A stretch of DNA of 38,184 bases from the IMG/VR virus record IMGVR_UViG_3300045988_128817; one strand, 5' to 3'. A program made the translations under genes and the position numbers. Each line of letters opens with the position of its first letter. Position 1 is the first letter of the stretch. Source of the stretch: a virus. The notes below the pieces were generated by a model. It was given only the letters and a program-made list of their open reading frames with translations, did not search any database and was not told where the DNA came from. Shown piece after piece: positions 772 to 8,520 of the stretch.

Positions 772-1824
772 ATGATAAAGAGTCGTACTTTTATTGCAAC
801 GCCTCCAGGAGCAACTATAAAGGAACAGCTTCAAGACAGGGGGCTCAGCCAGAAAGAATTTGCTCTGCGTATGGGTATGTCTGAAAAACATATCAGCAAT
901 CTTATAAACGGCGACGTCAGATTGACCCCTGAAGTTGCTTTTCGTTTGGAAATGGTTCTGGGTATCCCTGCAAAATTTTGGAATAACTTGGAATCTGTTT
1001 ATCGTGATAAAATAATAAAGGCTAATGCTGAAAATGAAATGGATGCAGATATAGAGTTGATGAAAAAATTTCCATATCGTGAAATGGAAAGAAATGAGTG
1101 GGTGCCTCATGCAACAAATTCTGTGGAAAGAGTCATAAATTTACGGCAGTATTTTGGAGTTGCACAGTTGGCGATGGTTCAAGATTCACGTATTACTCGA
1201 ATAGCTTGCCGCAGGTTGTCTGAAACGGAAAAAGCTGACTTTGCTTTAATTGCATGGGCTCAAAAAGCAAAATTAGAATGCAGATCAATTCAAACAGGTC
1301 CTATTGATTTAAAACATTTACATGATATCATTCCTGAAATAAGAGAAATGACCGTAAAAGACCCTTCTGAATTTTGCTCTCAATTAACGCAGATGTTGGC
1401 GGAGTGTGGAATCGCCCTTGTGTTTCTACCGCATATTGGAGGTTCTTTTTTACATGGAGCTACGTTTTATGAGGGACAAAAGATAGTGGTTGGTCTTACT
1501 GTTCGCGGACGGGATGCGGATAGATTTTGGTTTAGTCTTTTTCATGAATTGGCACATATTTTAAAGGGCCATATTAATCAACTTGAGGGGACTTCAGATG
1601 AGGACGAGGATGAGGCCAATCAATTCGCAAAAAATACATTGATAGATATCAGAAGCTTTGAATCTTTTGTTGAAAACGGAGACTATAGAAAGGATGCTGT
1701 AATTCAATTTGCTGATTCAATCGGAATTGACAGGGGTATTGTAGTTGGACGTCTTCAGAAGGAAGGCTATATCCCATTTAATTGGTTTAACGATTTAAAG
1801 AAAAAATATGTTATTACAAATTAG
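772..1824 (+). CDS. higA: HigA-type XRE HTH antitoxin fused to a C-terminal ImmA/IrrE (COG2856) zinc metallopeptidase domain
   Basis: The N-terminus (IKEQLQDRGLSQKEFALRMGMSEKHISNLINGDVRLTPEVAFRLEMVLGIPAKFWNNLE) is HigA-like. The C-terminal half carries an intact HEXXH (FHELAHILKGH). RBS is AGGAGGAGG. Confidence 0.8.
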   Translation: MIKSRTFIATPPGATIKEQLQDRGLSQKEFALRMGMSEKHISNLINGDVRLTPEVAFRLEMVLGIPAKFWNNLESVYRDKIIKANAENEMDADIELMKKFPYREMERNEWVPHATNSVERVINLRQYFGVAQLAMVQDSRITRIACRRLSETEKADFALIAWAQKAKLECRSIQTGPIDLKHLHDIIPEIREMTVKDPSEFCSQLTQMLAECGIALVFLPHIGGSFLHGATFYEGQKIVVGLTVRGRDADRFWFSLFHELAHILKGHINQLEGTSDEDEDEANQFAKNTLIDIRSFESFVENGDYRKDAVIQFADSIGIDRGIVVGRLQKEGYIPFNWFNDLKKKYVITN

Positions 1825-3746: not shown

Positions 3747-5084
3747 TTATGAAAAAAATACTTTGAGATTCTGCTGATCATTCATCTCTATTCGCGTAAT
3801 GATGCGCCGCCATAAAGACCGCTTATTTTCATCTGTTAAAAGGTCGTAATCCGCGAGAAAGTCTGTATTTAAAATTTCTTTCAAGTGGGATATATTTTTT
3901 GGTTGTGATCTCTGATATTGCTCTTCTGCTTGGGCAAGATTCTGTTTTAGCTGCTCTGTTCGCCTGCGATAAGTCTCCTTATCCATGTTACCTTCCAGAT
4001 AGATATCATTGAGGCGTTCTATTTTCTGTCGCAGTGACATGACTTCGCTGGCGGCATCGCTACGTTTTGTCGCAGATTCTTTTGTTTCGGCAGCCACAAT
4101 ATACTCGCTCATCAAGCGTCGGATGTGACTGACAAGGTATTTCTCTATTTTGAGTTCTGATATGTGTTTGTGATTCTCGCATGAGTAGTCGTCGGTTGCC
4201 CGCGGGCAGCAGTAATATTTTACTGTTGTATATTTTCCTTTCATCCGGTGCCCACAATGCGCACAAAACAGAATTCCGGTGAAAATGTAAACTCTGCCGG
4301 TGGGAGTTCTTTTTATATGGCTGCCACGAAATATTTCTTGATTTTTGTCAAAACGCTCGCGGCTGATATATTGGGGACGATACCCGGAGATTCCCATATA
4401 TTCACCGGCGTATGCTGATCGGTGCAGAAGGCGGCGAATAAAAACAGCTGAAAAATCCGTTCCGTGTTTTTCATTGATATACTTCGTTGTCAGGGATGCG
4501 CTGTTTGTACGATCGAAAGTATTAAATATATCATGGACAACAGGCGCAGTTTCTTCGTCTATCACGGACTTTTTTTCTCCTTCGACGATTGCTATTTTAT
4601 AGCCGTACGGCTGTTTCCCGACGACCTGTTTTTTCTGTGCTTTGTTGTCTAAGACAAATTTTATACGCTCTCCTGTGCGCTCTGCCTCGTTCTGAGCTAC
4701 GGAAAGCATGATATTGACTTTCAGGATACCGTCGGCGCTTTCTGTGTTGTAGTCCTCTAAAATTGTTCTCCACGTTACTTTGTTTCGGTCGAGAACTTCC
4801 TGAACTCTGTAATATTCTTTCACCGATCTAAACCAGCGGTCGAGTTTGATAAACAGGATTTGGTCTATCTTACCCGCTTCCACATCCCGAAGCATTCTCG
4901 CCAGTGCGGGCCTTTTACTTGCCGATTTTCGGCCGGATATTCCCTCATCCACATATTCGCCGACAACTGTCATATTGTGATCTTTTGCATATTGGTGCAG
5001 CGCATCCTTTTGCGCCGGCAAACTGTAGCCGTGGAGCGCCTGTTCTTCGGTGGACACGCGCATGTATAATGCTACGCGTTTCAT
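3747..5084 (-). CDS. int: Large serine recombinase (phage integrase)
   Basis: Resolvase N-terminus MKRVALYMRVSTEEQ...GYSLPAQ, a recombinase domain, a Cys-rich zinc ribbon (CAHCGHRM...YYCCP) and a C-terminal coiled coil. Confidence 0.9.
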   Translation of the reverse strand: MKRVALYMRVSTEEQALHGYSLPAQKDALHQYAKDHNMTVVGEYVDEGISGRKSASKRPALARMLRDVEAGKIDQILFIKLDRWFRSVKEYYRVQEVLDRNKVTWRTILEDYNTESADGILKVNIMLSVAQNEAERTGERIKFVLDNKAQKKQVVGKQPYGYKIAIVEGEKKSVIDEETAPVVHDIFNTFDRTNSASLTTKYINEKHGTDFSAVFIRRLLHRSAYAGEYMGISGYRPQYISRERFDKNQEIFRGSHIKRTPTGRVYIFTGILFCAHCGHRMKGKYTTVKYYCCPRATDDYSCENHKHISELKIEKYLVSHIRRLMSEYIVAAETKESATKRSDAASEVMSLRQKIERLNDIYLEGNMDKETYRRRTEQLKQNLAQAEEQYQRSQPKNISHLKEILNTDFLADYDLLTDENKRSLWRRIITRIEMNDQQNLKVFFS

Positions 5085-5106: not shown

Positions 5107-5496
5107 CTATAATCCTAATTGGGCCTTTAATGCTTCCTGCAAAGTGGCCGAAAAATTGATTCCAGCTTTTTCTGCTTCGTCATTCAGCCAAGATGGGATA
5201 GTGCAGTTCTTTCTGACGGAACGATTTTCGTTGCGTTTACGGTAATTATCAAAATCGACGTCTACCAATGTCTTAAATTGATTTCCCTCTGTTAAGACAG
5301 ATGAAATCGAAGATGGTTCCGGTACTGCCTTTTTTTCATCTTCCCAGTAACATCCGGTCATAGCGATAGCATCTCGAGCCATATCCATAGCCTCCGCCTC
5401 ATCTTCGCCTTGAGTATTGATGTCAAAATCGGGTATATAGACAACAAAACCGCCTTCCTCTGCTGGGGTTAAAACGATAGGATAAACTTTTTTCAT
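5107..5496 (-). CDS. hicB: HicB-family antitoxin with a C-terminal RHH-like DNA-binding tail
   Basis: MKKVYPIVLTPAEEGGFVVYIPDFDINTQGEDEAEAMDMARDAI is the HicB N-domain pattern. RBS is AAAGGAGGAA. Confidence 0.8.
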   Translation of the reverse strand: MKKVYPIVLTPAEEGGFVVYIPDFDINTQGEDEAEAMDMARDAIAMTGCYWEDEKKAVPEPSSISSVLTEGNQFKTLVDVDFDNYRKRNENRSVRKNCTIPSWLNDEAEKAGINFSATLQEALKAQLGL

Positions 5497-5532
5497 GAGA
5501 GATTCCTCCTTTTATCGAAACAGAGAACGGGT

Positions 5533-5706
5533 TTATTTCAGCCCGTTTCTCTTAATAATTGCTTTGGCAAGCACTTCCTTTATTTCAGGATGACGTGGAA
5601 TAGGTTCTGTATTTTTTCCGTTGGTGTAAATATCGTGATTTGCACCATTTCTGACCAGATACCAACCATTTTTTTCGAGCATCCTAATCAACTCCCTTCG
5701 TTTCAA
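5533..5706 (-). CDS. hicA: HicA-family mRNA interferase toxin (57 aa, absent from the ORF track)
   Basis: TTG start 9 nt after AAGGAGG. Hand translation gives (M)KRRELIRMLEKNGWYLVRNGANHDIYTNGKNTEPIPRHPEIKEVLAKAIIKRNGLK, matching the HicA pattern (G.H..y......t.iPrH.eik.gtl..Il). Confidence 0.8.
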   Translation of the reverse strand: MKRRELIRMLEKNGWYLVRNGANHDIYTNGKNTEPIPRHPEIKEVLAKAIIKRNGLK

Positions 5707-5729
5707 GTGCCGTACCTCCTTACAATTAT

Positions 5730-5783
5730 ATTATACGCATTAATACGCATAAAGTCAATGGAAAAATGCGTATTGATGCGTAT
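5730..5783 (-). promoter_or_regulatory. hicAB promoter flanked by four ATACGCAT operator-like repeats
   Basis: On the minus strand: TTGACT(5758-5753), 17-nt spacer, TATAAT(5735-5730). atacgcat at 5733-5740 and 5743-5750 faces atgcgtat at 5766-5773 and 5776-5783, forming a 17/18 inverted repeat around the -35. Confidence 0.65.
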
Positions 5784-5789
5784 TTTTTT

Positions 5790-5829
5790 ATAAAAATATC
5801 CCGCCCTCCTGCGCCAACAGGTGGGCGGG
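5790..5829 (-). terminator. Rho-independent terminator of the lipoprotein gene
   Basis: cccgccc(5800-5806)/gggcggg(5823-5829) plus inner cct/agg pairs. On the minus strand it is followed by atattttta. Confidence 0.7.
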
Positions 5830-5890
5830 TTGTTACGATAATTCCATTCATTCAGTTTTTAAAATAAATGTGAATACACATGGTATTGAT

Positions 5891-6439
5891 TTATGCATAT
5901 GATGCACTTTTTAAAATATTTTCAATTTCTTCAGACTGTTCTTTTGAATAATACGCAGATATTTCATATACTAATCCATTATCTTCCAATAGTATATTTG
6001 TTGTATATATTGTGTTTTCATCATCATCATTTATATATGTGCTATAACTATCAAATCTATCGGCGTATTTTCCGGCAATTTCAGTGGAGGATATTTCCGG
6101 AGTCGAGTGTTTTGAAGTTACACCATTATCAGAGGAATCTTCTATTTTTTGGGATTGAAATTCATATCTGTCATTTAAATATTTTGCTGAATTTCCTTTT
6201 GTTGTCATGGTGGGGTCAATGACATTGCACTCGAAAATTGTATGTGAGCCATCATCTCTCATATATACAGATGCGATTACTTCATCGCCACTGTCTATAG
6301 TTGGCTCTTCACGCGAGTATGAAGTAGGTATATCAAATGTTAAATTTTTAGCTGAAATTTTTGTTGTGCTCGTTCCGCAAGCGGCGAAACTGAAACATAT
6401 AAATGCTGCAATACAAAGCGTTAAAATTTTCTTTTTCAT
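5891..6439 (-). CDS. Prophage-encoded lipoprotein (182 aa)
   Basis: MKKKILTLCIAAFICFSFAAC is a signal peptide plus lipobox Cys. AAGGAGG lies 6 nt upstream of ATG 6439. The gene is AT-rich. Confidence 0.75.
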   Translation of the reverse strand: MKKKILTLCIAAFICFSFAACGTSTTKISAKNLTFDIPTSYSREEPTIDSGDEVIASVYMRDDGSHTIFECNVIDPTMTTKGNSAKYLNDRYEFQSQKIEDSSDNGVTSKHSTPEISSTEIAGKYADRFDSYSTYINDDDENTIYTTNILLEDNGLVYEISAYYSKEQSEEIENILKSASYA

Positions 6440-6485
6440 TTTTATCCTCCTTGTATAAGTAAAATGATTGATAATCAATAAGACA

Positions 6486-6512
6486 TATTTGCAAACATAA
6501 ATGTTGCAAATA
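6486..6512. promoter_or_regulatory. 9-bp perfect inverted repeat TATTTGCAA-N9-TTGCAAATA upstream of the lipoprotein gene
   Basis: tatttgcaa(6486-6494)/ttgcaaata(6504-6512). It shares the TTGCAA core with the 11-bp repeats at 8974..9006. Confidence 0.45.
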
Positions 6513-6598
6513 AATTAAATAACCCATTCAGGATTTAACTTACCGATAACTTGTCCAAAACATTTGTATGCATGATTTTTCTTCAGCACAATGTCAAT

Positions 6599-7498
6599 TT
6601 ATTCGATACAATCCCAGAAATCGTTTTCATGGACAATTTGAATTTTTGAGCCGGACTTTCTTAAGTTGACAGCCTTTTCGACTTTGCGGCCATAACATGA
6701 AAATGCCCAGCACGGATTCCCCTCATCGCCCACTATAAGAAAGTCAGTATTTTTTACTACTGAATCTTTGAAAGTACCTCCTGCATCGGTTACTGCTTCA
6801 GCAATTTCTGTTCTGGAAGCTCTGGAAGATTTGCCAGTGAAACTGAAAATTTTATCTTTAAAAGTAATATTAGGCTGCATGCTACAGATTCCAGAGATTT
6901 GGTACTGTTCCTTCAACGCATCGATTTCTCTTTGGGAAATGTTGTAAGATTCTGCACAGTCAATAAAATCGCTCATAAAAGCAATTAGCATTCCTCTTTC
7001 ATCTTCTGTAATCACTCCATCCTGAAGGACTGTCGTGATTAAACTTCGAATCTCGTCATACGGATATGTTCCAATCAAGACATCTTCGTTTGAATCTAAC
7101 CAGTCATTAAGTCTTTTAATTTCTGTGTCACTTAATTTTTTATCAGCTAAGATTCCATGAAAAATTCCATGTAGTAGCTGTAGAGACAGAGTGATAAATC
7201 CATAATATTTACCGTCATTAAATTGATCGCAGACCCACAGAATATTTTCAATCTCTTCTTGTTCCAGAACATTATCAGAAAGAACTTCGATAATGACGGG
7301 AATCAACTCCTTGAATGGAGACTGGTGTTTATATGTCTTGTGTATATGCAACCAATTTCTTAACTCTTCAATTTCGGCCCGATTGACTTTTTCGTCAATG
7401 GTTATACCTTGCAAAAGCCCGCGTAGAGTAAGGAGCGCTTTTTCGGTTTCAGCCTTTCCCATATATTTTCTATAGTCCATAGTTTCATATGTTGACAT
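6599..7498 (-). CDS. Protein with three TerB-like helical repeats and a C-terminal BRCT domain (299 aa)
   Basis: The C-terminus FSFTGKSSRASRTEIAEAVTDAGGTFKDSVVKNTDFLIVGDEG...KVEKAVNL...IQIVHENDFW follows the LigA-type BRCT pattern. The N-terminus repeats the motif h.G...D..h...Eh..L..WL three times. Start is set at ATG 7498 (AAGGAAGG upstream). Confidence 0.6.
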   Translation of the reverse strand: MSTYETMDYRKYMGKAETEKALLTLRGLLQGITIDEKVNRAEIEELRNWLHIHKTYKHQSPFKELIPVIIEVLSDNVLEQEEIENILWVCDQFNDGKYYGFITLSLQLLHGIFHGILADKKLSDTEIKRLNDWLDSNEDVLIGTYPYDEIRSLITTVLQDGVITEDERGMLIAFMSDFIDCAESYNISQREIDALKEQYQISGICSMQPNITFKDKIFSFTGKSSRASRTEIAEAVTDAGGTFKDSVVKNTDFLIVGDEGNPCWAFSCYGRKVEKAVNLRKSGSKIQIVHENDFWDCIE

Positions 7499-7543
7499 AA
7501 GTAAGTTACCTTCCTTTCTCGGGATCGGGATATAACTCAAAAA

Positions 7544-7759
7544 TCAAAGTTCATTCTGGCACCTTGATTCAATTGACTGAACATCATCTTTTTCAAAGTC
7601 ATTTTTTTTAATATGACTTAATGCATGTTGATAGCTTTTCAAATGTGTTTCATAATTACACTTTGCATTAAGGAAGATACTGTAACTATCATCTTCGTTT
7701 CTGCAAACGGTTTCCTTTACTCCGATTGGAAGATCAATCAGATGGACGTTCAATGTCAT
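7544..7759 (-). CDS. Short ImmA/IrrE-like protein with a degenerate metal motif (HALSH instead of HEXXH)
   Basis: LIDLPIGVKE...SIFLNAKCNYETHLKSYQHALSHIKKNDF matches short phage ImmA-like proteins except for Glu to Ala in the motif. Its ATG overlaps the repressor stop (TAATG). Confidence 0.5.
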   Translation of the reverse strand: MTLNVHLIDLPIGVKETVCRNEDDSYSIFLNAKCNYETHLKSYQHALSHIKKNDFEKDDVQSIESRCQNEL

Positions 7760-8136
7760 TAATCATCAACCCCTTTTTCCTTTCTCTTCAGAGCCATTAA
7801 CATTTCGTGTGTAGTTTTTAGATCTTCCGGAGAAGAATCACGCGCTGCACTAAATAATAGTCGAAGTTCTTTATTGTCGAAGATTTCTTGTGCGATCTGA
7901 GCGGTTTCTTCGTTTAAATAGTATAGATTTGTATTTTCTTTTTCTTCATCATCTCCATAAAAATAAGATAATGGTACATCGAAATAATTACAGATAATTT
8001 CAATTTTATCTTTTTTAGGTGTGCTTTTTCCATTTTTCCAATCTGATAATGTAGCTGTCGATATTCCAGTGTCTTTATGAACTCTGTAAGGAGTTATTCC
8101 ATTAGCTTTTAGCAACTTTTCGAATTTTTGATACAT
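7759..8136 (-). CDS. CI-like lysogeny repressor, XRE HTH (125 aa)
   Basis: MYQKFEKLLKANGITPYRVHKDTGISTATLSDWKNGKSTPKKDKIEIICNYF plus a C-terminal extension. It is divergent from a Cro-like gene. AAGAGG RBS precedes ATG 8136. Confidence 0.85.
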   Translation of the reverse strand: MYQKFEKLLKANGITPYRVHKDTGISTATLSDWKNGKSTPKKDKIEIICNYFDVPLSYFYGDDEEKENTNLYYLNEETAQIAQEIFDNKELRLLFSAARDSSPEDLKTTHEMLMALKRKEKGVDD

Positions 8137-8171
8137 AATAAACCTCTTTTTCATCACGGAAAAATTTCTTG

Positions 8172-8310
8172 ATTGTATTGACTATAAAATAAAACGTGAT
8201 ATATTGGAGATAGATCAGAAAACAGTGATATATTCTGATACTACATCTCGGAAATATATTTCTGTTTGTAAAACACAATATATCATATTTCCGATATATG
8301 TGTAAAGAGG
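8172..8310. promoter_or_regulatory. Genetic switch region: divergent or face-to-face promoters and three TGATATATT operator copies
   Basis: Plus strand: TTGACT(8178-8183), 16-nt spacer, TGaTATATT (-10 hexamer 8200-8205). gtgatatatt occurs at 8196-8205 and 8225-8234, with an inverted copy at 8277-8286. That inverted copy is itself a minus-strand TGaTATATT with TTACAC(8305-8300) as -35. An alternative minus -10, TACAAT, lies at 8177-8172. A 12-bp palindrome gaaatatatttc lies at 8251-8262. Confidence 0.6.
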
Positions 8311-8319
8311 GGAGGGTAA

Positions 8320-8520
8320 TTGTTGTACAAAAAATTTAATAAGTTACTTAAAGATTGCGACAGAACAATATATAGAGTTTCAAAAGACACTGGAATATCA
8401 ACAGCTACGCTCTACAATTGGAAACGTGGAGTCAGTACTCCCAAAGTCGACAAACTCAAAAAATTAGCCGACTACTTCGGCGTGTCGATCGAGTACTTCC
8501 TGGAGGATGACGCCGGCTGA
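8320..8520 (+). CDS. Cro-like XRE HTH protein
   Basis: GGAGGG RBS with TTG start at 8320 or 8323. It is 66 aa and is an HTH paralogue of the CI-like protein. Confidence 0.8.
   Translation: MLYKKFNKLLKDCDRTIYRVSKDTGISTATLYNWKRGVSTPKVDKLKKLADYFGVSIEYFLEDDAG

Follow-up and report, generated by a model that had tools for sequence, protein, structure and literature searches.

A candidate superinfection-immunity protein: a K139 Orf2-type BRCT protein encoded behind the repressor of a temperate phage

The lysogeny module and its BRCT gene

The window, i.e., the whole stretch of DNA analysed, comprises 38,184 nucleotides of a temperate, siphovirus-like phage (IMG/VR virus record IMGVR_UViG_3300045988_128817). 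On one strand, its lysogeny module carries an XRE repressor, a 71-aa ImmA-like gene, the BRCT gene under study, cargo (a lipoprotein and HicAB) and a recombinase, in this order. The features are as follows.

3747 to 5084, minus strand: large serine recombinase (prophage integrase; Pfam Resolvase, Recombinase and Zn_ribbon_recom), closing the lysogeny module
5107 to 5706, minus strand: HicA/HicB toxin-antitoxin pair (HicA 5533-5706, HicB 5107-5496; Pfam), further cargo in the same slot
5891 to 6478, minus strand: predicted lipoprotein (lipobox FAAC, from a lipobox scan; probable ATG start at 6439), next downstream of the BRCT gene
6599 to 7498, minus strand: BRCT gene under study, 299 aa, two tandem helical modules and a C-terminal BRCT domain; K139 Orf2 family, phrog_3989
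6605 to 6865, minus strand: BRCT domain, aa 212-298, with conserved T221-G222, R229, W264 and G270-R271-K272 and the family-specific insert GNPCWAFSCYGRK
6953 to 7201, minus strand: helical module 2, aa ~100-182, with near-invariant G115, D119, E126, W133 and P146
7211 to 7459, minus strand: helical module 1, aa ~14-96, with near-invariant G27, G31, D35, E42 and W49 (from AF2 helices, hhalign and conservation)
7544 to 7759, minus strand: mini ImmA-like protein, 71 aa, phrog_20886; HALSH replaces HExxH (degenerate metal site)
7759 to 8157, minus strand: XRE/CI-type repressor, 132 aa (Pfam HTH_26/HTH_3; PHROG transcriptional repressor families), first gene of the leftward lysogeny transcript
8158 to 8319, no strand: switch region with divergent promoters and operator-like repeats
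8306 to 8277 (minus strand) and 8178 to 8205 (plus strand): divergent sigma-70-like promoters inside the switch region
8191 to 8205, 8220 to 8234 and, inverted, 8276 to 8290: three copies of the operator-like GTGATATATT inside the switch region
8320 to 8520, plus strand: Cro-like HTH protein, 66 aa, divergent from the repressor

With a TTG start, the open reading frame of the BRCT gene spans 6599-7540 on the minus strand (313 aa), while the ATG at 7498 gives 299 aa. Since GAAAGGAAGG, a strong ribosome-binding site, is located about 8 nt 5' of this ATG, 6599-7498 is the likely gene; phrog_3989 matches the 299-aa protein over its full length (E 3e-83).

Within the CI/Cro-type switch, the gene is on the side of the repressor and belongs to the repressor transcript. 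A first-pass annotation, made from the sequence alone, had placed it on the same strand behind a CI-like repressor and a degenerate ImmA-like gene, and this arrangement is confirmed by the coordinates, by the gap of 45 nt between the 71-aa gene and the BRCT gene, and by the HALSH motif. On the minus strand from 8157 to 6599, no terminator-like site was found. The HTH coding regions of the Cro-like gene and the repressor gene are 71% complementary. Homology links the 71-aa protein to the core of Peptidase_M78 (ImmA), in which its relatives carry the motif HEIAH, HELKH or HELGH; Pfam gave no M78 match for it, and the HExxH zinc-binding/catalytic motif is absent. An Rfam scan of the window detected no RNA family, and when 25 kb of the window were compared with cultured phages by megablast, no match was returned.

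The AT-richness of the block, likewise remarked upon in the first-pass annotation, is exact to the base for positions 7561-7620 (15/60 G+C) and extends over 5500-8300, where the GC content is 34.1%, compared with 45.7% for 11000-38000. The low GC content, together with the neighbouring HicAB and lipoprotein genes, fits the expectation for accessory cargo. By analogy of position, the predicted lipoprotein may be a cell-surface exclusion factor, the counterpart of glo in Vibrio phage K139.

Domain architecture of the protein

The C-terminal part of the protein had been read as a LigA-type BRCT domain, which is borne out by sequence and structure comparison. Pfam PF00533 matches aa 212-298 with an E-value of 4.9e-9 and 36.7 bits (cut-off 21.3). 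For the AlphaFold2 model (pLDDT 86, pTM 0.81), Foldseek retrieved exclusively BRCT domains from the PDB (LigA, RFC1, XRCC1, Rad4) at a probability of 1.0, superimposing with an rmsd of 2.3-2.7 A over 85-86 columns and a TM-score to target of 0.56-0.63, and a profile of the C-terminal part matched the Rad4, RFC1 and LigA BRCTs in the PDB at 4e-7 to 1e-4. With the full model as query, solely ligase or BRCT proteins were returned from the BFVD viral library, and a PDB sequence search with the whole protein gave no meaningful match outside the BRCT. The C-terminal part is truly a BRCT domain, and it belongs to the LigA/RFC1 class. The BRCTs of LigA and of eukaryotic RFC1 (p140) are its best structural and profile matches; however, the window protein has neither ligase nor clamp-loader domains and carries an extra 13-residue insert. 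Identity with LigA, as the name in several databases has it, was rejected, with TIGR00575 at 35.6 bits (cut-off 444) and PRK07956 at 30 (cut-off 369), both on the BRCT tail only.

The database names "NAD-dependent DNA ligase" and "DNA polymerase III epsilon", and NCBIfam matches to LigA and PRK06195 that are limited to the BRCT tails of these models, might be taken to mean that the gene is a functionless, decayed piece of a NAD-dependent DNA ligase or DnaQ gene. These NCBIfam matches amount to 30-42 bits against cut-offs of 369-1051 and concern the BRCT only, whereas the full-length architecture is kept in the 2,090 clusters at 50% identity that make up the family, with near-invariant residues in both halves, a confident structure prediction and a strong ribosome-binding site. 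Given the family-wide conservation, the idea of a remnant is effectively refuted already, and we regard it as extremely improbable.

In 150 diverse representatives drawn from the clusters at 50% identity, T/S221 is conserved in 97%, G222 in 99%, R/K229 in 93%, G270 in 100%, R271 in 93% and K272 in 99%; overall, conservation of the TG...R...GRK phosphate pocket is 91-100% among these relatives. The TG...R stretch aligns with "ITGVLESIER" of RFC1, whose residues T415, G416, R423 and K458 form the 5'-phosphate pocket, and K272, which lies outside the aligned stretch, would be equivalent to RFC1 K458. Judging from residue conservation and from the mutagenesis of RFC1, the pocket is predicted to bind 5'-phosphorylated DNA ends or nicks.

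The GRK helix is preceded by the 13-residue, family-specific insert, for which the model is of low confidence (pLDDT <50 at residues 264-266); its sequence GNPCWAFSCYGRK is invariant in the Firmicute branch. We also weighed a possible zinc site of C205, C263, C268 and H290. For the family as a whole it was rejected, given that conservation of these positions among diverse relatives is only 47-83% and that two of the residues are absent from K139 Orf2; within the Firmicute branch, such a site may exist.

For the N-terminal part, the first-pass annotation had proposed three TerB-like helical repeats. The repeats are real, but are better described as a duplicated module of ~85 aa: in hhalign, residues ~20-94 match residues ~104-179 with a probability of 99% (E 1e-17), which amounts to a tandem duplication, and two D-x6-E hairpins per module give four repeats, not three. 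The likeness to TerB is weak, below every family threshold and without a structural counterpart. TerB has no match in the window protein itself (Pfam, E<=0.1), and among 26 relatives only weak Pfam matches to TerB (8/26, best E 6e-4) and DUF533 (5/26, best E 1e-5) were obtained. The family consensus scores 17.8 bits against TerB PF05099 (cut-off 24.4) over 24 residues (aa 118-141), and this sub-threshold motif match is confined to module 2. In a Foldseek comparison of the N-terminal model (pLDDT 93) with the PDB, the best E-value was 2 and no TerB entry appeared, the method resolving helical bundles poorly; a profile of the N-terminal part found no meaningful match in the PDB either. Structure prediction has, thus, delivered the expected BRCT fold but no TerB-like one, and as Foldseek drew a blank on the N-terminal model, no fold is assigned to the helical modules. 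TerB and DUF533 are likewise all-helical with a paired "D-G-x5-E" acidic motif, but the likeness ends at the short sub-threshold sequence match.

Family spread and genomic neighbourhoods

The family, with its 2,090 clusters at 50% identity, occurs in gut Clostridia, Bacilli, and Vibrio and Pseudomonas phages. Homologues of the window protein were retrieved as 1,732 90%-identity clusters, and identities are ~50% across Bacilli, Clostridia and a few Spirochaetes. The distribution of the family is patchy, on mobile elements rather than in the core.

A full-length homologue is Orf2 of Vibrio phage K139, with which the window protein shares 32% identity in BLASTP (aa 15-291 versus 22-292, E 2e-38) and 93% coverage in tblastn. 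By sequence comparison, the window protein is a member of the K139 Orf2 family; an identity of 32% is, however, no guarantee of shared function. Promoter and transcription start of the K139 lysogenic operon, PL-cI-orf2-glo-int, are annotated. Orf2 is credited with superinfection immunity (Nesper 1999, as cited in PMC7997343). The view that the protein is undescribed and without an assigned role is overstated, considering this full-length homologue with the role ascribed to it there and an exonuclease-fused relative that is already listed by PADLOC as candidate PDC-S48. To our knowledge, the mechanism of K139 Orf2 was never determined, and its BRCT nature reportedly went unrecognised in 1999. 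The protein is not entirely undescribed, yet it is mechanistically unexplored.

The loci of the relatives were surveyed by a coordinate-based count in which the downstream side served as control. Upstream, a same-strand HTH repressor occurs within 1.6 kb in 74/77 of the viral loci and 44/72 of the genome loci, compared with 10/65 and 1/62, respectively, on the downstream side, and an integrase follows within 6 kb downstream in 49/51 viral and 39/58 genome loci. Named prophage examples of this conserved slot come from Geobacillus, Flavonifractor and C. paraputrificum. An ImmA-like gene was counted within 5 kb, based on jackhmmer seeds, in 28/77 viral and 14/72 genome loci, which are lower bounds because the jackhmmer seed missed the window's own HTH+metallo-protease gene. 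The survey suggested with the first-pass annotation, of whether homologues follow XRE/ImmA pairs, has a positive outcome as regards the repressor.

Neither repressor nor integrase is nearby in 21 of the 72 genome copies. Five of these 21 were checked, and all lie beside defence genes. In one locus (L027), SngA, SngB and SngC of Shango are immediately upstream; a second one (L072) has SngC and a Mokosh-like helicase; in three others (L050, L052, L059), PDC-S37/Hhe-like helicase-nucleases adjoin, accompanied in L052 by a GajB-like (Gabija-like) helicase.

BRCT domains are classic DNA-damage modules, and we know of no account of how DNA damage activates ImmA. The protein could be imagined as an induction sensor, with the BRCT sensing ends, nicks or gaps and informing either an ImmA-type protease or the repressor itself. 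If true, it would connect DNA damage to ImmR/ImmA-type switches, a link that is so far missing. In many loci the gene is indeed situated between an XRE repressor and an ImmA-like gene, such as in C. paraputrificum (CI-BRCT-x-x-M78-integrase) and Geobacillus (XRE-exonuclease-BRCT-M78-recombinase), and related orders are found in pneumococcal prophages (regulator-metalloprotease-exo/BRCT-integrase) and in the window (XRE-miniImmA-BRCT). However, the ImmA-like gene is counted in a minority of the loci, even if as a lower bound; the ImmA-like partner in the window has lost the catalytic Glu; no ImmA is annotated in the control region of K139, whose Orf2 is cited for superinfection immunity and not for induction; and 21 genome copies are devoid of both repressor and integrase nearby, with the five checked adjoining Shango or Hhe-like systems. 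The suggestion of the first-pass annotation that the protein feeds into induction is, thus, disfavoured, and we consider it distinctly unlikely.

At least one orphan chromosomal copy has no mobile or defence neighbours. Such a copy would suit a factor of host physiology or lysogen maintenance which binds LigA, the beta-clamp, SSB or RecA-loaded DNA and tunes repair or replication, or stabilises the prophage, with no direct anti-phage role. Conservation of ~50% across classes is unusual for defence genes and may point to contacts with some conserved host machinery instead; together with the invariant Firmicute insert, it suggests a conserved host partner, and the nearest BRCT types, LigA and RFC1, serve replication and repair. 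On the other hand, a maintenance role leaves unexplained the repressor-integrase linkage, the recurrence beside defence systems and the reported K139 phenotype, and the family is patchy and mobile rather than core. We judge it unlikely.

Coupling to an exonuclease is a recurrent theme among the relatives. Fusions to RNase_T occur in both orders, with the enzyme N- or C-terminal, and in Geobacillus the exonuclease is encoded adjacently (XRE-exonuclease-BRCT-ImmA(M78)-recombinase); some relatives are fused to HhH_2 and a second BRCT, which are DNA-binding modules. The PADLOC profile of PDC-S48 (PDLC05027, 411 positions) is matched by aa 115-298 of the window protein, helical module 2 plus the BRCT, at positions 237-405 (E 1.8e-7), while exonuclease-fused relatives cover more of it, as far as positions 5-295 (L080), with E-values down to 1e-42 (L061). 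In the window protein, Pfam detected no RNase_T match and no catalytic domain, and in the entire window neither an RNase_T/DEDDh relative of the Geobacillus exonuclease nor a Geobacillus-type ImmA was detected. A search of the open-access literature yielded nothing relevant on PDC-S48, on BRCT with TerB, or on BRCT in anti-phage immunity.

A candidate role in superinfection immunity and comparison with known systems

As the best explanation, we propose that the gene product belongs to the K139 Orf2 family in function as well, being made in the lysogen and acting against other phages (superinfection immunity), a proposal to which we would give an even chance. It is favoured because of the homology to K139 Orf2, which occupies the same slot and is cited for superinfection immunity; because of the conserved repressor-integrase position and the defence-gene neighbours where no prophage module is present; and because of the relation to PDC-S48, the coupling to DNA-end enzymes, the conserved BRCT pocket and the low-GC cargo block. 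The idea of a lysogen-expressed defence component reading DNA ends or nicks, already voiced in the first-pass annotation, is supported by the conservation of the pocket predicted to bind them.

Mechanistically, the BRCT pocket would bind 5'-phosphorylated ends or nicks, which would be missing from the integrated prophage and the host chromosome, but exposed by an injected or replicating linear phage genome. End binding might then block end-joining or circularisation dependent on host LigA, whose own BRCT would read the same structures. Alternatively, the bound end might be handed to a 3'-5' exonuclease, fused or adjacent in many relatives; in the window phage, this enzyme would be host-supplied or dispensable. 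The duplicated helical modules, with their near-invariant G..G...D......E......W surface, might provide partner, ligand or oligomerisation sites. Since the protein has no effector domain, and neither a relative of the Geobacillus exonuclease nor a Geobacillus-type ImmA was detected in the window, the effector step is conjecture. It is only tentatively that we picture the enzyme-less BRCT protein as a stand-alone immune sensor and effector, which would know foreign DNA by its free 5'-phosphorylated ends or nicks and act by competition with LigA or recruitment of a 3'-5' exonuclease. If so, BRCT would have its first immune role in prokaryotes, one shared by P2-like phages of Vibrio, siphoviruses of Firmicutes and defence islands on chromosomes. 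Less likely but more far-reaching, the end-sensing would act on ImmA-type switches and explain how DNA damage leads to ImmR cleavage.

Genes of lysogeny operons are also expressed during establishment. This timing, together with a conserved pocket of the putative end-binding type, would be compatible with a role in self-protection or counter-defence, in which an early product caps the phage ends against RecBCD/AddAB or end-sensing defences until integration. However, fusions to 3'-5' exonucleases suit attack better than protection, copies in chromosomal defence islands have no phage genome to shield, and a protein made only after injection comes late for the ends; we regard this role as improbable. 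An anti-phage function of the lysogen-expressed protein remains our preferred explanation.

BRCT is a hallmark of eukaryotic DNA-damage signalling. If the anti-phage explanation is true, a very widespread family would be a prophage-borne defence with BRCT as its recognition module, and free DNA ends read by BRCT would join the short list of self/non-self cues. Furthermore, a mechanism would be supplied for the 1999 phenotype of the cholera phage K139, the PDC-S48 candidate would become open to testing, as nature provides split, fused and exonuclease-less versions of it, and annotations that widely misname the protein "NAD-dependent DNA ligase" or "DNA polymerase III epsilon" would be corrected. 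Overall, the interpretation of the first-pass annotation is partly supported.

Among known systems, Orf2 of K139/Kappa (K139p03), the second gene of the PL transcript, has the same two-module plus BRCT layout and the same FTG...R...W...GRK residues as the window protein, and it occupies the same slot, right after the repressor, with the genes of an envelope protein and the integrase behind it. In contrast to the siphovirus-like window phage, K139 infects a Gammaproteobacterium and is a P2-like myovirus; the pair of Cys seen in the Firmicute insert is absent from its Orf2, the partner protein Glo is periplasmic and not a lipoprotein, and no ImmA-like gene is annotated in its control region.

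The ImmR/ImmA/Int modules of ICEBs1 and of Gram-positive temperate phages share with the window the order repressor, (ImmA-like), cargo and recombinase on one strand, as well as a divergent Cro/Xis side with operator repeats in between. They differ in that the ImmA-like gene of the window is a 71-aa remnant without the catalytic Glu, and a BRCT gene is no known component of these modules.

PDC-S48, which is a candidate defence system only, has its C-terminal half, i.e., one helical module and the BRCT, in common with the window protein; it possesses one helical module instead of two and, at its N-terminus, a DEDDh exonuclease (positions ~1-190) that is absent from the window protein. Pneumococcal exo-BRCT proteins and NCBIfam PRK06195, to which the window protein matches at E 5.7e-11, combine enzyme and BRCT without the duplicated helical modules. 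Nevertheless, the DEDDh-BRCT proteins of pneumococcal prophages (e.g., phiARI0923 gp34) reside in the same slot, in the order regulator, metalloprotease, exo-BRCT and integrase, and their BRCT is of the same type as that of the window protein, with 34% identity over aa 205-299.

The BRCT gene beside the genetic switch

The window carries a temperate siphovirus-like genome (endolysin, large terminase, portal, major head protein, tape-measure protein and replication initiator), for which no near relative was found among cultured phages. The gene under study, named here after the BRCT domain of its product, lies in the following setting:

772-1824 (+): 350-aa protein with an N-terminal XRE HTH and a metallo-protease C-terminal half (ImmA-like, phrog_87)
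3747-5084 (-): large serine recombinase
5107-5706 (-): HicA/HicB toxin-antitoxin pair, flanked by the lipoprotein and recombinase genes
5891-6478 (-): predicted lipoprotein (lipobox FAAC), next gene after the BRCT gene
6599-7498 (-): BRCT gene, 299-aa open reading frame
7544-7759 (-): 71-aa ImmA-like protein ("mini-ImmA"); abuts the repressor gene, 45 nt before the BRCT gene
7759-8157 (-): XRE/CI-type repressor, 132 aa, divergent from the Cro-like gene
8320-8520 (+): Cro-like HTH protein, 66 aa, divergent from the repressor

The longest version of the BRCT reading frame starts with TTG at 7540; since GAAAGGAAGG precedes the ATG at 7498 by about 8 nt, 6599-7498 is the probable extent of the gene, in agreement with the first-pass annotation of this DNA. 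The gene order also bears out its placement, on one strand, behind a CI-like repressor and an ImmA-like gene, which puts it on the repressor's side of a classical switch. The surrounding block was rightly described as AT-rich (34% GC at 5500-8300 versus 46% in the remaining phage), and the hand count of 15/60 G+C at 7561-7620 is exact. Because the repressor gene abuts the mini-ImmA gene, the gap to the BRCT gene is short and no terminator-like site was found on the minus strand from 8157 to 6599, the three genes are likely co-transcribed. A 162-bp region separates the repressor and Cro-like genes. Sigma-70-like promoters lead out of it both ways, and the operator-like GTGATATATT occurs in it three times (8191-8290; two direct copies, one inverted), these copies being likely operators shared by both genes. 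Over 76 nt, the HTH-coding parts of repressor and Cro-like genes (8060-8135 and 8324-8399, respectively) show 71% complementarity, suggestive of two paralogous DNA-binding domains in facing orientation.

The mini-ImmA had been called degenerate, and correctly so: an iterative search seeded with it leads to full-length Peptidase_M78 ImmA proteins, its short relatives retain HExxH, and the window version reads HALSH. Because of this degeneracy, the 350-aa HTH-metallo-protease, whose gene lies directly 5' of the endolysin gene (1887-2588) and distant from the switch, could be the functional protease or an anti-repressor.

On the same strand, the BRCT gene is followed by the genes for the lipoprotein, HicA, HicB and the recombinase, in that order. 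HicAB pairs also occur near BRCT genes at five other collected loci (L105, L119, L121, L125, L142), a recurrence that singles out the slot as a hotspot for cargo or defence genes. In Vibrio cholerae phage K139 the same post-BRCT position holds the periplasmic exclusion protein Glo, and in Pseudomonas phage Lodos a BamE-like lipoprotein adjoins the BRCT gene. In a crude scan across loci, 9/128 immediate downstream neighbours were lipoprotein-like, versus 1-4 at other positions; the stretches concerned are 5891-6478 of the window, L168 4843-5256 and L169 1212-1553. An envelope exclusion factor and a cytoplasmic BRCT protein may form a recurring pair, or just occupy common cargo space. The 120-nt spacer between BRCT and lipoprotein genes contains a short, AT-rich inverted repeat (TTTGCAA-N9-TTGCAAA, 6488-6510, minus strand), which was not called by the terminator scan; it may form a weak hairpin or serve to regulate the lipoprotein gene.

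A C-terminal BRCT domain and duplicated helical modules

The last 87 residues form a genuine BRCT domain, as had been noted from the sequence alone: Pfam scores them at 36.7 bits (cut-off 21.3), the AlphaFold2 model of the protein (pLDDT 86, pTM 0.81) has BRCT domains of LigA, RFC1, XRCC1 and Rad4 as its sole PDB neighbours, and the domain profile matches the BRCTs of Rad4, RFC1 and LigA. In the profile alignment, "FTG" and the Arg eight residues on align with "ITGVLESIER" of RFC1, whose 5'-phosphate pocket we take to consist of T415, G416, R423 and K458. Among 150 representatives of 50%-identity clusters, T/S221 (97%), G222 (99%), R/K229 (93%), W264 (99%), G270 (100%), R271 (93%) and K272 (99%) are nearly invariant. 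C205, C263 and C268, with the insert GNPCWAFSCYGRK among them, are invariant in 40 close relatives; family-wide they are conserved at just 57-83%, and Orf2 of K139 lacks two of them. Only at this insert is confidence in the model low (pLDDT <50 at 264-266). A branch-specific metal or redox site may exist at these Cys residues and H290 (codons of C205, C263, C268 and H290 at about 6884-6886, 6710-6712, 6695-6697 and 6629-6631).

For the N-terminal 200 residues, about ten helices are predicted confidently (pLDDT 93). They comprise a tandem duplication (residues ~20-94 versus ~104-179; hhalign probability 99%, E 1e-17), each module presenting a near-invariant G..G...D......E......W face; G27, D35, E42 and W49 of module 1 and G115, D119, E126 and W133 of module 2 are conserved at 97-100% in the 150 representatives. 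The helical repeats of the first-pass annotation are confirmed; a TerB assignment for them is not. Pfam gave no TerB match to the window protein, the family consensus, matching across 24 residues, reached 17.8 bits (cut-off 24.4), and Foldseek with the N-terminal model returned no match, so the modules are not called TerB domains. With TerB matched by 8/26 and DUF533 by 5/26 relatives at weak E-values, they are TerB-reminiscent at motif level.

Family and genomic neighbourhoods

PHROG 3989 (unknown function) covers the protein at full length. At 90% identity, the homologues form 1,732 clusters, mostly of about 304 aa and about 50% identical between genera (Geobacillus, Anoxybacillus, Clostridium, Flavonifractor and others). 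A search with just the N-terminal profile retrieves 2,090 representatives from a 50%-identity library. Relatives are usually named "BRCT domain-containing protein" and some are misnamed "NAD-dependent DNA ligase" or "DNA polymerase III epsilon". A few, in assemblies labelled Spirochaetales or Treponema (L046, L086), share ~48-51% identity with Firmicute proteins, suggesting recent cross-phylum transfer or mis-binned contigs.

The neighbourhood survey took in 80 loci of one-genome-per-species assemblies and another 80 of IMG/VR; neighbours were annotated by iterative searches from seed proteins.

Table. Genes neighbouring BRCT-family relatives
HTH, same strand, ending <=1.6 kb upstream: viral 74/77, genome 44/72
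Control, HTH, same strand, <=1.6 kb downstream: viral 10/65, genome 1/62
Serine or tyrosine recombinase <=6 kb downstream: viral 49/51, genome 39/58

The survey of homologues that had been asked for bears out the link to a repressor: the upstream HTH gene recurs. An ImmA-like gene was detected near a minority of the loci (a minimum, as detection used seed searches). The interval between repressor and BRCT gene varies, holding a mini-ImmA, a 146-165-aa ImmA, an exonuclease or unknown genes. Examples annotated by Pfam keep to this pattern: the order is XRE - DEDDh exonuclease - BRCT - ImmA - serine recombinase in Geobacillus prophages, HTH - BRCT - ... - integrases in Flavonifractor, and CI-like - BRCT - two unknowns - ImmA - tyrosine integrase, adjoining rpsI, in C. 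paraputrificum.

Neither upstream repressor nor downstream recombinase accompanies the gene at 21/72 genome loci. Neighbours were inspected at five of these and at L052:

L027 (2049-10839): Shango SngA, SngB and SngC directly upstream, ABC-3C CTD2 protein downstream
L072 (2093-7747): SngC and a Mokosh-like helicase-DUF2726 protein
L050 (1990-7902), L052 (11-7233), L059: DUF4011 helicase / REase_MTES_1575 proteins matching PDC-S37 and Hhe; at L052 additionally a GajB-like UvrD helicase
L073: TGT-family neighbour

The L020 neighbour is ordinary (choloylglycine hydrolase), and in Desulforamulus the gene stands as an orphan. At L027, a complete Shango system (SngABC) stands directly beside a chromosomal BRCT copy. 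The clusters at L027, L072, L050 and L052 may be new composite defence islands.

That the BRCT protein feeds prophage induction, a role formerly proposed alongside superinfection immunity, is made attractive by the ImmR/ImmA neighbourhood. We consider it quite improbable, however, because ImmA-like genes were detected at only that minority of loci, the partner in the window is predicted to be catalytically dead, the K139 control region has no annotated ImmA gene, and some copies sit among defence genes without any repressor. A role in host physiology, which would fit the family's unusually high conservation, we likewise regard as unlikely.

The best-supported reading, at about even confidence, is a protein of the K139 Orf2 family that is expressed in the lysogen and acts against phages. 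What the analysis shows directly is the architecture, the pocket and the lysogeny-operon slot, both of them conserved, and the associations with defence islands and exonucleases.

Proposed mechanism and known relatives

As to mechanism, we infer that the BRCT pocket would recognise nicks or 5'-phosphorylated ends, which would be exposed on injected or replicating phage DNA and absent from the integrated prophage. Binding might block LigA-dependent end-joining or, alternatively, lead to 3'-5' degradation via a fused, adjacent or host exonuclease, with the duplicated helical modules as possible partner or ligand sites. A BRCT domain in immunity would surprise many specialists; nothing tying BRCT domains to anti-phage defence, and no mention of PDC-S48, a candidate defence system of PADLOC-DB, was found in the open-access literature.

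Orf2 of K139/Kappa matches the window protein with 32% identity over 93% of its length (tblastn versus cultured phages) and, in work by Nesper and co-workers from 1999, reportedly has a part in preventing superinfection. The K139 lysogenic operon, with annotated promoter and transcription start, reads PL - cI - orf2 - glo - int. A passage in a review (PMC7997343) attributes superinfection immunity by Orf2 to Nesper et al. 1999. Pseudomonas phages carry a shorter relative, with one module and BRCT, beside the integrase and the BamE-like lipoprotein.

The sole PADLOC match of the window protein is PDC-S48 (E 1.8e-7, profile positions 237-405 of 411), a profile that a scan of fused relatives resolves into DEDDh exonuclease, helical module and BRCT. 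In pneumococcal prophages, a gene that fuses a DEDDh exonuclease to BRCT occupies the slot regulator - metalloprotease - [exo-BRCT] - integrase; in one of them, phiARI0923, a ctRNA_pT181-type antisense RNA is annotated between fusion gene and integrase (L170 3294-3401). Long family members bear RNase_T at the N-terminus or C-terminus, or HhH_2 and a second BRCT; fusions in both orders, together with adjacency, indicate that the family core has repeatedly been coupled to 3'-5' exonuclease and DNA-binding modules. Unlike these, the window protein has no RNase_T, HhH_2 or second BRCT, and a search of the rest of the window for RNase_T/DEDDh relatives of the Geobacillus exonuclease detected none. 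Given the K139 phenotype cited and the PDC-S48 candidate, the family is not undescribed or without an assigned role, as initially supposed, yet it is essentially unexplored; with this gene, the window adds a new member, Firmicute and siphoviral, to a family that has one old phenotype and one database candidate.
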